A DNA stretch of 64,000 nucleotides from a virus. The notes beneath the pieces were generated by a model, which saw only the letters and a program-made list of their open reading frames with translations, made no database searches and was not told the DNA's origin. The stretch lies in IMG/VR virus record IMGVR_UViG_3300020196_000024, one strand, 5' to 3'. The position numbers were made by a program, and so were the translations under genes. Below are positions 1,242-5,448 of the stretch, piece by piece (position 1 is the stretch's first letter; each line of letters starts with the position of its first letter).

Positions 1242-1340
1242 TTATTTTTTGTTTTTCTTGTCACACAAATATTCATGAACAATCGTCCCCCCGAAAATTA
1301 GAATAGTAACCCCAAAAAAAAGTATAATTGAATAATCCAT
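1242..1340 (-). CDS. small hydrophobic peptide (32 aa, MDYSIILFFGVTILIFGG...)
   Basis: Hand-translated. Preceded on its strand by the same promoter-like cassette (1374-1398) seen upstream of the paralog array genes. Confidence 0.3.
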   Translation of the reverse strand: MDYSIILFFGVTILIFGGTIVHEYLCDKKNKK

Positions 1341-1373
1341 ACTAAGCCTTTTAACAAAGATACAAAATTTCCA

Positions 1374-1398
1374 TAAAATTTTCCAAAAATTTTTTTTG
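1374..1398 (-). promoter_or_regulatory. upstream cassette copy A (plus-strand AAATTTTCCAAAAATTTTTTTT)
   Basis: One of five near-identical A/T-CCC-A/T blocks, each 10-60 nt upstream of a minus-strand start codon in the 1.2-5.5 kb region. Confidence 0.35.
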
Positions 1399-1617
1399 AA
1401 TATTGAGAAGAAAATTAAAATGGGAGCTGATCACGGGGGGTAGTAGTTTTATCGACCACACAACATATATTATATCGACCAAAAAACATCAGAAATGGTC
1501 GATATATGACACATTATCGGTCGATAATTGCCAAACAAGTTCCACTTGAAGGAGGGGTTAAGCTAACAAATTATTTGAAAGGTAATGGGGGTCCATCAAC
1601 AGAAAAAAAACTTCTAA

Positions 1618-1923
1618 CTAAGGTTGGAAGTCGTCCTCTTTCCCTGCCTCATGAGATTTAATTTGTTCCCATTCCTCTTCAGTAACAATTTCATTATAAA
1701 CACTACATACCAATACTCCCATGTATTTTGCAAGTTCATCAATATATTCTCTAATTCCCCATGTGTTTGCCAAATCCTTTTTAAAAAAAACAAGGAAGAC
1801 TTCATAGCATTCATGGTGCCGAAATTTGGAAAACTCTGTAGGTTTGGTTACATAAAGATCCAAAATGAATGGATATTTCTCCAATAACAGTGTTTTGATG
1901 AACTTTCGTAAAGCCTTTTCCAT
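1618..1923 (-). CDS. hypothetical protein with LLLEKYPFILDLYV motif (ILP-K/R-YPWI family)
   Basis: N-terminal FIKTLLLEKYPFILDLYV matches a motif in ORFs 5605..6132, 7690..7977 and 8449..8712. Confidence 0.5.
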   Translation of the reverse strand: MEKALRKFIKTLLLEKYPFILDLYVTKPTEFSKFRHHECYEVFLVFFKKDLANTWGIREYIDELAKYMGVLVCSVYNEIVTEEEWEQIKSHEAGKEDDFQP

Positions 1924-1993
1924 TAATAATAAATACTATGAATAACTGTCACAATTTTTCAAAGATTTGTGACATATCTTATAGATGAAAAAA

Positions 1994-2015
1994 CCCCCTT
2001 CGTAATTGAAGAGGG
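1994..2015 (-). terminator. stem-loop + T-tract terminator, copy 1 of 3 (GACCCTCTTCAATTACGAAGGGGGTTTTTT on the minus strand)
   Basis: 8-bp GC-rich stem, 6-nt loop and T-run immediately 3' of gene 2035..2556. A near-identical about 50-bp block sits 3' of the next two genes. Confidence 0.5.
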
Positions 2016-2034
2016 TCTTGTTCTATAAATTAAT

Positions 2035-2556
2035 TTAATTTCTTTTTTTAGCATCATCAAACATTCCAAGTCCACGACCTCCAATAATAATTAACAAAGC
2101 GGAAATCATAAAACTAACCTCCATGGAGTCTTGATTACTTGGGTCAAGTTCCAAAAGTTTATCAATAATCATTGAAAATGGTGTGAAGAATAACCCAGCG
2201 TTAATAATACCCATTCCCAATAATCCGACTTTAACTGAATGCCATAATTTTTTCTTTGTACTCATTTTTTCTTGTTCGGTCATTTCCTCAGAACCATTTG
2301 ATTCCAACTCAAGATTTTCAACAGCACTTTTAACTTCACCAAATGAAGAGTTCGGAGAAACTCCCAATAGAGAAAATGCGTTTTTAATACTATTCAATTC
2401 TTTTGGAGACATTTCAGAAACAACTTTTTCTACAACCTGTTCAATTCTTGGACTGTGTATAACTGCATCCATAAGAGCTTCTTCCGATTGTTCACGAATG
2501 ATTCTTTTTACCATTCTATTCAAATCGGATTCAGTTAATCTTATAATTTTTTTCAT
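2035..2556 (-). CDS. hypothetical membrane protein, MKKIIRLTESDL N-terminal family
   Basis: N-terminus is MKKIIRLTESDLNRMVKRIIREQ. A hydrophobic C-terminal segment is present. Confidence 0.6.
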   Translation of the reverse strand: MKKIIRLTESDLNRMVKRIIREQSEEALMDAVIHSPRIEQVVEKVVSEMSPKELNSIKNAFSLLGVSPNSSFGEVKSAVENLELESNGSEEMTEQEKMSTKKKLWHSVKVGLLGMGIINAGLFFTPFSMIIDKLLELDPSNQDSMEVSFMISALLIIIGGRGLGMFDDAKKRN

Positions 2557-2590
2557 GAAAATATATTTTCAATAAATACTCTTAAAAAGG

Positions 2591-2617
2591 ACAATTTTTT
2601 TCCAGAATTTTTTTTCT
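2591..2617 (-). promoter_or_regulatory. upstream cassette copy B (plus-strand TTTTTTTCCAGAATTTTTTTT), with ATAAATA at 2572-2578
   Basis: Lies 35-60 nt upstream of the start at 2556. Shares TTTTTCCAGAA-T-run with copy E. Confidence 0.35.
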
Positions 2618-3364: not shown

Positions 3365-3871
3365 TTATAATGTTCCGTAATTTCTCATTCTTCTTGACGC
3401 TTGTCTACATACACGACCTCTTTCAGCTTCACCTTTAATTAATTTGATTAATTTAACAACTAGCATCAAAATAATAACAGCAGCAAAGATCTGAATGAAA
3501 ACAACAGGTACACCAAAACCAGCGATAGTTATAATCTCACCCACTTGTTCACTTTGAGTATTTTTCTTGAAAATAGATTTAACTTTTTTAATTAACTCTT
3601 TAACATCTTTTACAGAAGTTAATTTGTCAATTGCATCTTTAACTTTTCCAAGAATTGTCTTTTGTTCTTCATCCGCATTTGGAGGAGTTTCAAGTGGACA
3701 ATCATTGACGGCGAAATCAACATCTTCAACCGATACAGGTTCTTCTTCCACTGTTGATAACTCATAATTAATGGTATCGACTACTTGAGATTCATCCTCT
3801 TTCAAAAGCCTTTTCTCCAACCGAATATTGGCTTCTTGTATGTGTCTAATTTTACTATAACTTGTATTCAT
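3365..3871 (-). CDS. hypothetical membrane protein (168 aa)
   Basis: Acidic N-terminal half. A C-terminal hydrophobic helix IITIAGFGVPVVFIQIFAAVIILMLVV. Confidence 0.5.
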   Translation of the reverse strand: MNTSYSKIRHIQEANIRLEKRLLKEDESQVVDTINYELSTVEEEPVSVEDVDFAVNDCPLETPPNADEEQKTILGKVKDAIDKLTSVKDVKELIKKVKSIFKKNTQSEQVGEIITIAGFGVPVVFIQIFAAVIILMLVVKLIKLIKGEAERGRVCRQASRRMRNYGTL

Positions 3872-3881
3872 AATACCATTT

Positions 3882-3916
3882 CAAATAAATATAAATTTTC
3901 CCAAAAATTTTTTTTG
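3882..3916 (-). promoter_or_regulatory. upstream cassette copy D (CAAATAAATATAAATTTTCCCAAAAATTTTTTTTG)
   Basis: Lies 11-45 nt upstream of the start at 3871. Confidence 0.35.
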
Positions 3917-3932
3917 TCCATTGGTAGTAAAA

Positions 3933-4304
3933 TCATAATGAAAAACTTTCTCCACATCCACAAGTTCGGTTCGCGTTAGGATTTACAAACTGAAACCCTT
4001 TACCATTTAAGCCATCTGAAAAATTTAATTCAGTACCAAATAGGTATAGTAACGATTTATTATCTACCAAAATTTTTACACCTTTATCTACAGAAAGAGT
4101 ATCGTTTGATTGTTGTTCCGTATCAAAAGAAAGATCATATGACAATCCACTACAACCCCCACCTTTTACTGCTACTCTTACGAAGGGTGTTATACATCCA
4201 CTCTCATCTATAAGTGAATTTAATTTTTTTGCTGCTGATTGTGAAACTGTAATCATATGTGTAACATTGTTAAAAAAAAACCATAATTTAACCCGTTGGG
4301 TCAT
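3933..4304 (-). CDS. IscA/HesB-family iron-sulfur cluster insertion protein
   Basis: C-terminal FVNPNANRTCGCGESF is the canonical HesB/IscA signature. Size about 120 aa. Confidence 0.75.
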   Translation of the reverse strand: MTQRVKLWFFFNNVTHMITVSQSAAKKLNSLIDESGCITPFVRVAVKGGGCSGLSYDLSFDTEQQSNDTLSVDKGVKILVDNKSLLYLFGTELNFSDGLNGKGFQFVNPNANRTCGCGESFSL

Positions 4305-4782
4305 TTACTAAAATCTGGTTAAAGTCTAATACATCTTCATAAAACTGTGAACTAACCATTTTAACTTTCAGCCCCGTATTTTTCTCGAACCAATTTATAA
4401 AAATATCTTTCCAAATATCTCCGAACAACCCCATCAGTTTTCCATAAATTGTGTCAGGAATAGTAGCAAGTGGACACATGGACTCAGAAATTTGTTTGAT
4501 CAAGTTTGTGTTTACACATAGACTATACCAAATTGAATTATCAAAATCATCAAAATTCCTTTCAAGTTGGAGGAATATCTCACCACCTCCATCTTTTAAA
4601 TCATCTTTATAATCTTTTCTACTCATCCAACCGTGATAAGGTTTTAGATCCTTTTCAAAAATTGAAATGATTGCTTTTTCCAAATTATTAGATCCACCTC
4701 CCTTCTCATCAAATTGCTCATTAATTGTATTTTTTATCAAACTAATAAGTTCTGCCTCTGTGAGTCTAACAATTTTTTTCAT
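4288..4782 (-). CDS. hypothetical protein combining the MKKIVRLTE N-terminal motif with the NWFEK C-terminal motif
   Basis: N-terminus MKKIVRLTEAELISLIKNTINEQ. C-terminus LMGLFGDIWKDIFINWFEKNTGLKVK. Confidence 0.6.
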   Translation of the reverse strand: MKKIVRLTEAELISLIKNTINEQFDEKGGGSNNLEKAIISIFEKDLKPYHGWMSRKDYKDDLKDGGGEIFLQLERNFDDFDNSIWYSLCVNTNLIKQISESMCPLATIPDTIYGKLMGLFGDIWKDIFINWFEKNTGLKVKMVSSQFYEDVLDFNQILVNDPTG

Positions 4783-4793
4783 AATATATTTTA

Positions 4794-5192
4794 TTAGTCG
4801 TTTGTTTCTGCGTTTAATCTTCCACCGGCATCAAAAGTACTGAATTTCAATCCGGCGTATCTCATGAGTTCAACCATTTTTGCTCTCAGTTCAGTAAAAT
4901 AAAGTTCTCCATATGCTTTATCAACTAATTCTTTGGTTATTTTTCCACCATCCCATCCATATTTTTTCATAGGAGTACTATCAATTTTAACATCACAATC
5001 ATAATCAATAAAATGTTCAGTCATGTGGTAAGGGCCCATCTCTCTTCTTTGTTTTACTTCTGAGGCTCTGTTGGTTTTGAATGAAACAATGTATGGATAA
5101 CTTTTGGGCATCAAATTATCCCAAATTTTTTTCAGAGGTTTTGTCACATCTGCAACAATTTCGTCCTCCCTATATTCTTCATTCCAACTCAT
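4794..5192 (-). CDS. hypothetical protein (132 aa)
   Basis: ORF track. Confidence 0.45.
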   Translation of the reverse strand: MSWNEEYREDEIVADVTKPLKKIWDNLMPKSYPYIVSFKTNRASEVKQRREMGPYHMTEHFIDYDCDVKIDSTPMKKYGWDGGKITKELVDKAYGELYFTELRAKMVELMRYAGLKFSTFDAGGRLNAETND

Positions 5193-5386
5193 AAGGTGTT
5201 TGAGTCAGCATCAATTTTCGGATCCTTTGATTTGAAGATTTGTTCATCAAGATAAGGTTTCGGATCACCAAGCTTTGTTTCAACCAATTGTTTGAATTTT
5301 CCAAGCTCAATTTTCTTTCCCCCTGTGTGTTGCTCACGGATTGAATTCTTTTCTTCCTCCGTCATGTTATTTAATAAATGTTTCAT
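5189..5386 (-). CDS. hypothetical small protein (65 aa)
   Basis: ORF track. Preceded by cassette copy E. Confidence 0.45.
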   Translation of the reverse strand: MKHLLNNMTEEEKNSIREQHTGGKKIELGKFKQLVETKLGDPKPYLDEQIFKSKDPKIDADSNTL

Positions 5387-5398
5387 AATTAGTGTTTT

Positions 5399-5448
5399 TG
5401 ATAAATACCAAATTTTCCCAAAAATTTTTCCAGAAATTTTTTTTACCC
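5399..5448 (-). promoter_or_regulatory. upstream cassette copy E (GATAAATACCAAATTTTCCCAAAAATTTTTCCAGAAATTTTTTTT)
   Basis: Lies 13-62 nt upstream of the start at 5386. Contains both sub-motifs of copies A/D and B. Confidence 0.35.

Follow-up and report, generated by a model that had tools for sequence, protein, structure and literature searches.

How an array of small genes comes to be punctuated again and again by nearly the same intergenic sequence, and what this sequence does, is the question raised by the DNA studied here, a 64-kb stretch of the IMG/VR virus record IMGVR_UViG_3300020196_000024 (hereafter the window). Between positions 1131 and 5444, genes of the minus strand are separated by cassettes that combine a GC-rich hairpin, A/T-rich modules ending in GG (A/T-GG modules) and the heptamer TATTTAT. 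The original prediction saw in them a candidate promoter and a 3'-end signal, and explained the array by the duplication of whole transcription units. Our analysis indicates that its regulatory reading is largely right and that its evolutionary reading is wrong. The cassettes probably stop one transcript and restart the next, and double as homology patches for recombination in the genome of a jumbo bacteriophage. The whole region from 1131 to 5444 (minus strand) is likely to be hyperplastic, i.e. a succession of short transcription units, split by the cassettes, whose genes are small and for the most part have no known function.

In the mechanism that we propose, the hairpin and its U6 tract would act as a Rho-independent terminator that ends the upstream unit and insulates its neighbour. 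TATTTAT would then be a -10-like core (consensus R-TATTTAT-N4-A), with initiation about 5 nt downstream and many mRNAs leaderless or nearly so. The host RNA polymerase may recognize it through a host sigma factor or through the RpoD/RpoS-like sigma factor of the phage itself, a point that is among the weakest of our proposal. The A(n)T(n)GG modules would serve as an UP-like or curved-DNA enhancer marking the gene set and, in two promoters, would also provide a TTTG box 20-21 nt upstream of TAnnTTTG. Finally, the near-identical repeated cassette would be a homology patch at which recombination inserts, deletes or reorders single-gene modules, as experiments have shown for the promoter-early stem-loop cassettes of T4-type phages.

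The cassette and its A/T-GG modules

The elements of the cassette recur in the array far beyond chance. A plus-strand pattern of the A/T-rich element (AAATTTTCCCAAAAATTTTT, three mismatches at most) has six matches in the window, all between 1375 and 5441, versus 0.26 in shuffled sequences, none of 100 shuffles reaching six. A looser regular expression (A4+T2+..GG+A3+) gives eight matches in the window versus a shuffle average of 2.2; six of the eight lie in the array, all in the coding (minus) orientation and upstream of the starts at 5386, 3871, 2556 and 1340. The hairpin (CCCCCTTCGTAATTGAAGAGGG) is present three times (at 1994, 2937 and 3322) for zero copies expected, each time 19-21 nt past a minus-strand stop codon. 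As a minus-strand RNA it forms a GC-rich stem of 10-12 bp followed by U6 (about -17 to -22 kcal/mol, z from -3.3 to -6), and the T-run follows the hairpin in the minus-strand reading only.

These data refine what had been predicted. An A/T-rich element followed by TATTTAT had been described before five genes: the repetition is real, but the gene starting at 1340 has TATCTTTG instead of TATTTAT. All five promoter copies that had been listed exist, but a sixth, upstream of 2617-2883 and right after the hairpin at 2937, had been overlooked. As for the 50-bp block said to be identical after three genes, the three hairpins are there, but only two copies (1988-2036 and 2931-2979) are close to identity, with 98% over 49 nt; the third (3316-3364) shares only the first ~30 nt with them.

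Cassettes were gathered from the window and from related contigs (those named below are labelled L014, L015, L021, L034, L035 and L038, whereas L008, L009 and L010 cover the flanks of the window) in two independent ways, by the stem (25 unique cassettes) and by the A/T-rich element (52 unique sequences). On the coding strand, the composite cassette of about 90 bp starts with TnTAnAACAAGA, followed by CCCTCTTC-(6-nt loop)-GAAGGGGG and T6; it continues with (C)ATTT-A5T5GG(G), an optional A4T4G(G), an optional TCC-T6-GGG, TATTTAT and, after 4-25 nt, ATG. The A(n)T(n)GG module occurs in it once, twice or three times, and the distance class of TATTTAT, which lies 11, 19, 27, 39-41 or 52 nt past the T-run, depends on this number. 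In the 25 unique cassettes collected by their stem, the stem-loop is directly upstream of the promoter with an AT-rich stretch between them (hairpin-T6-(C)ATTTA5T5GG...TATTTAT-ATG). The 8-bp stem is invariant in all 25, whatever the phage, with 10 different loop sequences, and the same holds for cassettes gathered by the A/T-rich element. Degenerate copies also exist, some keeping the left flank and the 5' arm with the 3' arm lost, others being reduced to the promoter. Within 4.3 kb, the window has three full copies, one degenerate copy and three promoter-only copies, and the arrays of related phages have 5-7 copies each.

Within the window, the A/T-GG module is found only in this array. Furthermore, its orientation and context are kept in many related contigs whose proteins are 53-77% identical. 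Since the module is both confined to the array and conserved in diverged relatives, it is probably functional and specific to this gene set. Hence, as far as distribution in the sequence goes, the proposal of a class-specific promoter holds for the A/T-GG module but not for TATTTAT, which is used throughout the window. In the two array promoters with boxes at 2888-2895 and 1355-1362, it is the TTTG of the module that lies 20-21 nt upstream of the TAnnTTTG box; four promoters of the window, including these two, have the form TTG-N20/21-TAnnTTTG. We consider that the module is most likely an AT-rich, intrinsically bent, UP-like enhancer marking the gene set, a role that is among the weakest parts of our proposal. 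The E. coli UP element has the consensus AAAWWTWTTTTnnAAAA and lies at -38 to -59. The sequence AAAAATTTTTGGGAAAA fits this consensus with about one mismatch, which is a lead given that the consensus is that of another bacterium, but it lies at or almost at the -10-like box and not at -38 to -59. Weighing further against the enhancer role, the spacing between A/T-GG and TATTTAT varies (0-3, 8-11 or 20-24 nt), unlike that of a -35 box or of a canonical UP element; before the gene starting at 3273, a short A/T form (AAAAATTTTTGGGG) stands immediately against TATTTAT. The same variation, from 0 to 24 nt, led us to reject the A/T element as a fixed -35/-33 box.

A less probable reading, which nevertheless deserves serious consideration, is that A(n)T(n)GG is bound by a specific regulator, or replaces the -35 element for the sigma factor of the phage, and defines a temporal class as the MotA box does for the middle promoters of T4. 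Its restriction to one gene set in 64 kb would fit a regulator, as would the conservation of its sequence, including GG(G), across diverged phages and the occurrence of a second, different element (GACCATCTCAGACAAATGGGTCGGGA) before TATTTAT in a neighbouring gene set; moreover, a sigma factor and an Hc1-like DNA-binding protein are encoded by the phage itself. However, besides the wide variation in spacing to TATTTAT, the module occurs as one to three degenerate tandem copies with A and T runs of variable length, even among near-identical variants, which is loose for a precise operator.

The second element belongs to a gene set located to the left of the window. It can be written as the palindrome-like GACCATCTCAGACAAATGGGTCGGGA or as GACCATCTCAGACAAATGGGTCG(G/T)GA, an imperfect palindrome directly 5' of TATTTAT-N5-ATG, and was found at 1-50 of the window (minus strand), at 2860-5490 of L009 and at 3100-5730 of L008, in 4-5 copies, some of them right after other terminators. 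The genes that it precedes encode proteins starting with MKYLITERQ, MNLNENISRVK, MKYIVSES and MKVVISEP. The presence of different upstream modules in neighbouring gene sets fits promoter classes set by such modules on a common core.

Probable termination and exchange of genes

The assignment of the hairpin and its U-tract as an intrinsic (Rho-independent) terminator is supported by sequence statistics and by comparative conservation and is among our strongest; the 3'-end signal of the original prediction thus finds support at this level. The stable GC-rich hairpin is followed by a U-tract, past the stop codon and on the coding strand, and its dimensions (stem of 8-12 bp, 6-nt loop, U6 tail, 19-21 nt past stop codons) are those of intrinsic terminators. 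It differs from them by a stem sequence that is the same in all copies and all phages, an identity that termination alone does not need. This invariance also weighs against the assignment, since it leaves no covariation to support the RNA structure.

Related phages have the same flanks on both sides of the array, a homologue of the gene 5605-6132 on the upstream side and the tiny peptides encoded by 1242-1340 and 1131-1241 at the distal end. Between these flanks, the order of genes in the window is MKH-operon, 168 aa, 97 aa, MENLWIK, 173 aa and 101 aa. In the 317-kb contig L021, it is 127 aa, MENLWIK, 98 aa, 171 aa, 146 aa, 99 aa, 168 aa, MKH and 216 aa, and both content and order are different again in L038, L034, L035 and L014. 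Orthologous proteins of the window and L021 are 70-77% identical, versus 96% for the MENLWIK protein. The module that encodes the latter has 94% nucleotide identity with L021 over 379 nt and is bordered by unrelated sequence on both sides. Its left breakpoint is the hairpin loop (TATTAC versus CGAAAC), the 5' arm being common to all cassettes and the sequences being identical from the 3' arm on; its right breakpoint falls inside the next A8TT(C/T)TGG element.

Because breakpoints fall in cassette elements, gene order differs between relatives and post-stop blocks with 98% identity lie beside coding DNA with at most 73%, these comparisons point to the exchange of single-gene modules by recombination within cassettes, and not to the duplication of units. 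Two observations temper this conclusion. The evidence for shuffling comes from a handful of metagenomic contigs, with one clean exchange plus differences in order and no recombination intermediate among them, and close variants of this phage (99.5% identity) have no rearrangement at the level of cassettes.

Could the hairpin be more than a patch of homology? In a rather unlikely version of this idea, the array would be an integron-like platform for gene capture and expression, combining a hairpin recognized by a protein, a built-in -10-only TATTTAT promoter, leaderless mRNAs and the RpoD-like sigma factor of the phage. If true, a clade of jumbo phages would have a self-contained, integron-like system of capture and expression working without Shine-Dalgarno or -35 signals. 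The narrower proposal that the conserved hairpin is the site of a dedicated folded-DNA recombination (integron attC-like or other), termination being secondary, also appears improbable. It would account for an 8-bp stem kept unchanged in the cassettes of several phages, when other terminators of the window use other stems, and for the exchange boundary found in the loop. Furthermore, the authors who described the promoter-early stem-loops (PeSLs) of T4-type phages made a similar proposal for GGGG...CCCC stems (PMC2839356, PMC4122927). However, no integrase or recombinase gene was seen beside the array, homologous recombination with gene conversion explains the invariance equally well, and the U6 tract and the position past stop codons are what a terminator needs.

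The tandem duplication of whole units (promoter, gene and terminator), cassette likeness being a leftover of homology between paralogs, was the evolutionary part of the original prediction and is equally doubtful. The genes starting at 2556 and 3273 do share an N-terminal module (about 25 aa and 75 nt) and the 98%-identical post-stop block of 49 nt. According to BLASTP, this N-terminus (MKKIIRLTESDLxRLVKKIIKEQ) is common to three array genes, starting at 2556, 3273 and 4782, and to a distant gene (27694-28041), but the proteins are unrelated beyond it and the same search revealed no significant match of the other array proteins to one another; the array is therefore not one of tandem paralogs. 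In addition, the same cassette surrounds unrelated genes (MENLWIK, MNTSYSK, MKH, MEKALRKF and the tiny peptides), and the conservation of an intergenic block better than that of adjacent coding DNA is the opposite of what simple decay after duplication predicts. With gene orders that differ among relatives and a 94%-identical module that ends within cassette elements, the growth of the array by duplicating whole units does not stand, and recombination within cassettes is the reading that we retain.

Short N-terminal modules attached to otherwise unrelated proteins are not limited to the array. Three types recur, MKKIIRLTESDLxRLVKK... (genes starting at 2556, 3273, 4782 and 28041), MNLQENIxRIKxxMG... 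(8330 and 9111) and MKYIIxESQL... (716 and 10029), with many more examples in L008, L009, L021 and L038, and all hold a (L/I/V)-x-E motif near the N-terminus. They are reminiscent of the shared capsid-targeting leader of the internal proteins of T4.

TATTTAT across the window

TATTTAT is not specific to the array and is used throughout the window. Among its 48 copies, about 28 are in sense orientation, 3-31 nt upstream of the start of an open reading frame (ORF). Enrichment upstream of starts, the check suggested along with the original prediction, was evaluated window-wide: when the 45 nt before each of 91 ORF starts are considered, no 7-mer is more enriched than TATTTAT, with 21 sense and 4 antisense occurrences for 1.5 expected (p = 4e-19). 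When the 28 sites are aligned, a purine precedes the motif in 26 and an A is found at the fifth nucleotide after it in 23, hence the consensus R-TATTTAT-N4-A. No position from -50 to -2 is conserved in this alignment, so that there is no -35/-33 box at a fixed spacing. TATTTAT also follows terminators that are unrelated to the cassette hairpin, at 29560, at 36156 and in L010.

Other known signals are not enriched: no enrichment of Shine-Dalgarno sequences was found in the window, and neither are sigma-70 promoters of the E. coli type enriched (47 versus 38 +/- 6). In 12 of the 28 sites, ATG comes only 3-5 nt after TATTTAT, and leaderless or near-leaderless mRNAs are therefore implied for many transcription units; short TATTTAT-ATG sites are found for instance at 727, 7685, 8341, 10004, 12357, 19276, 23213, 25363, 26267 and 56600. 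TATTTAT as a core promoter element of this phage is supported by these statistics and by comparative conservation, as had been predicted, and it ranks with the terminator among our strongest assignments. A search of the literature returned nothing relevant on TATTTAT as a motif, nor on the LTESDL protein module.

A promoter is preferred to a translation signal because TATTTAT is rare before genes internal to operons and commoner before others: it precedes 3 of the 33 genes whose upstream gap to a co-directional gene is at most 20 nt, versus 18 of the 57 other genes. It is very unlikely that the motif initiates translation. Its close proximity to ATG, often 4-5 nt, and the lack of Shine-Dalgarno sequences would suit such a signal, but operon-internal genes also need translation signals and almost never have it, its distance to ATG spans 3-31 nt, and it regularly comes after terminators. 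A ribosome-binding role was rejected on the distribution between operon-internal and other genes.

As a promoter, TATTTAT has parallels and no exact counterpart. Like other phage promoters of the -10-only type, the late promoters of T4 (TATAAATA) consist of a single short AT-rich box near the transcription start, have no -35 element and are used genome-wide. The phage studied here likewise appears to use a single short AT-rich box throughout, without a -35 element; however, TATTTAT differs from TATAAATA in both sequence and strand sense and, unlike T4 gp55, the sigma factor associated with this phage is RpoD/RpoS-like with a region 4. Sigma-A promoters of Bacteroidota have a -33 TTTG and a -7 TAnnTTTG box, the latter at -12 to -5 in F. 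psychrophilum (PMC9723704). The array promoters with boxes at 2888-2895 and 1355-1362 follow the pattern TTTG-N20/21-TAnnTTTG, Shine-Dalgarno sequences are missing from the genome as well, and the conserved A lies about as far from TATTTAT as the transcription start does from the -7 box. On the other hand, TATTTAT matches neither TAnnTTTG nor TATAAT exactly, which weighs against its role as a -10-like core; two of its positions deviate from TAnnTTTG and no -33 element accompanies it at a fixed spacing, in a phage whose host phylum is itself inferred.

The array, its phage and known systems

The features of the array are listed in Table 1.

Table 1. Genes and cassettes of the array, in the direction of transcription
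Feature	Position	Strand	Description
Promoter-only copy, first of the array	5401-5444	-	A8T3CTGG-A5T5GGG-A4T3GG, then TATTTAT 5401-5407; ATG 5386, 14 nt on
Four-gene operon without internal cassettes	3933-5386	-	
Operon gene, 65 aa	5189-5386	-	
Operon gene, 132 aa	4794-5192	-	
Operon gene, 164 aa	4288-4782	-	MKKIVRLTEAEL N-terminal module, no cassette
Operon gene, 123 aa	3933-4304	-	HesB/IscA-like (PF01521, E 1.9e-17)
Promoter-only copy	3885-3915	-	A8T5GGGA4TTTA, then TATTTAT 3885-3891; ATG 3871, 13 nt on
168-aa gene	3365-3871	-	MNTSYSKIRHIQ..., C-terminal hydrophobic stretch; 77% identical to L021 counterpart
Full cassette	3290-3364	-	Hairpin 3322-3343, T6 3316-3321, CATTTAAAAATTTTTGGGG, TATTTAT 3290-3296; ATG 3273, 16 nt on
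97-aa gene	2980-3273	-	MAKIIRLTESDL N-terminal module
Full cassette	2884-2979	-	Left flank AATTAATTTATAGAACAAGA, hairpin 2937-2958 (loop TATTAC), T6
Promoter of cassette 2884-2979		-	ATTTAAAAATTTTTG-N20-TATTTTTG (box 2888-2895), TTTG-N20-TAnnTTTG form; ATG 2883, 4 nt on
88-aa gene, MENLWIK...	2617-2883	-	Core of the module exchanged with L021
Degenerate half-cassette and promoter	2572-2660	-	TTCTAAAACCGACC..., 3' arm absent
Promoter of half-cassette		-	A8TTCTGG-A7TTG-TCCTTTTTAAGAG-TATTTAT (2572-2578); ATG 2556, 15 nt on
173-aa gene	2035-2556	-	MKKIIRLTESDL N-terminal module, C-terminal hydrophobic stretches
Full cassette	1929-2036	-	Left flank, hairpin 1994-2015, T6 1988-1993, no A/T-GG module
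Promoter of cassette 1929-2036		-	TATTTAT 1929-1935, 52 nt past the T-run; ATG 1923, 5 nt on
101-aa gene, MEKALRKF...	1618-1923	-	
Promoter-only copy	1355-1397	-	A8T5GG-A4T4ATGG-A3T4G-TATCTTTG; box 1355-1362, TTTG-N21-TAnnTTTG form; ATG 1340, 14 nt on
Two tiny hydrophobic peptide genes	1131-1340	-	32 aa (1242-1340) and 36 aa (1131-1241); kept at the distal array end in related phages

Scans of the array proteins against Pfam and PHROG gave no match except for the HesB/IscA-like gene, and a homologue search with the 173-aa protein retrieved only six metagenomic relatives. An Rfam scan of positions 1-7000 found nothing at E <= 1. The interval that separates the 101-aa gene from the promoter after it contains, at 1447-1526, TATCGACC/GGTCGATA in two direct and two inverted copies. 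The word clusters GGTCG/CGACC (12-115, 60-130 and 1453-1519) were not retained, since GGTCG is not enriched window-wide (42 versus 40 expected). A sequence resembling the 3' part of a tRNA at 945-990 on the minus strand (GGTTCGAATCC...) is probably not a tRNA, having neither an ARAGORN call nor an Rfam match at E <= 1. Perfect TTATCCACA sequences (DnaA-box consensus) number three in the 64 kb, at 5555-5563 (plus strand), 5569-5577 (plus strand) and 6958-6966 (minus strand), and all of them cluster within 1.4 kb just upstream of the array, beside runs of G5-7/C5-7 and with a G-rich tract at 5450-5600. The syntenic spot of L014 and L015 also carries GTTATCCACA. This cluster and the G-rich tract may mark an origin or have a regulatory role.

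The source of the window is an uncultured jumbo bacteriophage from freshwater (lake) and not a giant virus of eukaryotes. Proteins identical to those of the window were found on freshwater metagenome contigs from JGI, Logan and ENA, and about 20 IMG/VR contigs with cassette patterns were retrieved, five of them of 308-321 kb. No match was obtained among INPHARED phages, either by blastn with positions 1-8000 or by tblastn with two proteins, so that no cultured relative is known from this collection; the ten window proteins compared with PHROGs gave no match to T4 core genes. About 2 kb past the right edge of the window, L010 encodes a sigma-70-family protein of 266 aa with regions 2 and 4 (5808-6608; E 3e-54 to the RpoS model and 1e-53 to RpoD), whose closest solved structures are SigA proteins; the operon to which its gene belongs comes after a terminator, a TATTTAT and a TATCTTTG box. 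Other phage genes in or adjoining the window encode Amidase_2, PspC, a UvrC-like nuclease, Pyr_excise, Hc1 and DnaJ. The window itself has collagen-like proteins with matches to tail-fibre PHROGs, two DNA methyltransferases, DUF3310, a tRNA-Met and a full-length GOLLD RNA. This gene content (sigma factor, Amidase_2, PspC, GOLLD RNA and others) and the 308-321 kb relatives are the reasons for assigning the window to a phage. The reading as a eukaryotic giant virus, with an early promoter and a hairpin polyadenylation signal as in Mimivirus, has almost no chance of being right: the AT-rich genome, the collagen-like genes, the GT25/PLOD-GT enzyme and the GVMAG bin name of one matching IMG/VR contig recall such viruses, but the bacterial-type sigma factor, Amidase_2, PspC, U-tract intrinsic terminators, operons with ATGA overlaps and GOLLD RNA rule it out.

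Since Shine-Dalgarno sequences are not enriched, four promoters have the form TTG-N20/21-TAnnTTTG and an Hc1-like gene is present, the sequence suggests a host among the Bacteroidota, a phylum that we infer. A scan of bacterial genome contigs with the phage sigma factor gave only matches with 25-37% identity in unrelated taxa, and hence no pointer to the host.

Some other features of the window are worth mentioning. The GOLLD RNA (RF02032; 23551-23959, minus strand; 312.8 bits for a gathering score of 150, E 1e-88) and the tRNA-Met gene (24618-24689, minus strand), the sole tRNA gene of the window, are about 650 nt apart. Three large genes follow one another on the minus strand at 38804-47659 and encode proteins of 903, 976 and 1048 aa with collagen-like repeats and the tail-fibre matches; their local GC content is 0.46-0.50, versus ~0.33 elsewhere. 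A few kb away (51072-53834, minus strand), a protein of 920 aa is encoded in which a methyltransferase domain accompanies Glyco_transf_25 and a PLOD-type collagen glycosyltransferase domain (E 2e-69); this phage protein may be an enzyme that modifies collagen.

The closest known systems are the PeSLs, described in T4-type phages by Arbiol et al. (2010) and Comeau et al. (2014). In these composites of about 100 bp, a G/C stem-loop terminator is followed by an AT-rich stretch and then by an early promoter (TTGACA-N17-TATAAT or a sequence close to it), a Shine-Dalgarno sequence and ATG (PMC2839356, PMC4122927). They cluster around the orphan genes of hyperplastic regions, and degraded half-copies are known. 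Recombination has been mapped to their loop, AT-rich region and promoter, and gives deletions, replacements and mini-circles (PMC2839356, PMC4122927). The cassettes described here have the same composite architecture of stem-loop, AT-rich stretch and promoter, clustered near-identical copies in a hyperplastic context of small orphan genes, degenerate half copies, breakpoints in the loop and the AT-rich part, and a gene content and order shuffled between relatives. By contrast, they lack the strong sigma-70 early promoter and the Shine-Dalgarno sequence, having TATTTAT as a -10-only promoter or the form TTTG-N20/21-TAnnTTTG; moreover, they probably belong to another phage lineage, their stem is extremely invariant, and they are known from sequence alone. 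By analogy, the cassettes would thus work like PeSLs without strictly belonging to the PeSL family of T4.

The T4 internal-protein (IP) locus, brought into the comparison in PMC4122927, offers a second parallel, with a plastic set of small genes, a short shared N-terminal module and conserved flanking regulatory sequences. Capsid targeting by the MKKIIRLTESDL module is nevertheless not indicated here, and two of the proteins have hydrophobic C-terminal stretches.

The cassette system is conceptually foreseen by PeSLs, to which it adds a non-canonical promoter and likely leaderless transcripts. It would carry the PeSL concept past T4-type coliphages and vibriophages to uncultured freshwater phages of about 320 kb with a different type of promoter. 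For this group of phages without any cultured member, our analysis provides a candidate promoter consensus, R-TATTTAT-N4-A, and a putative terminator, and predicts that leaderless or near-leaderless mRNAs are widespread. Furthermore, it points out the variable gene set that is most likely to hold functions involved in the interaction with the host.

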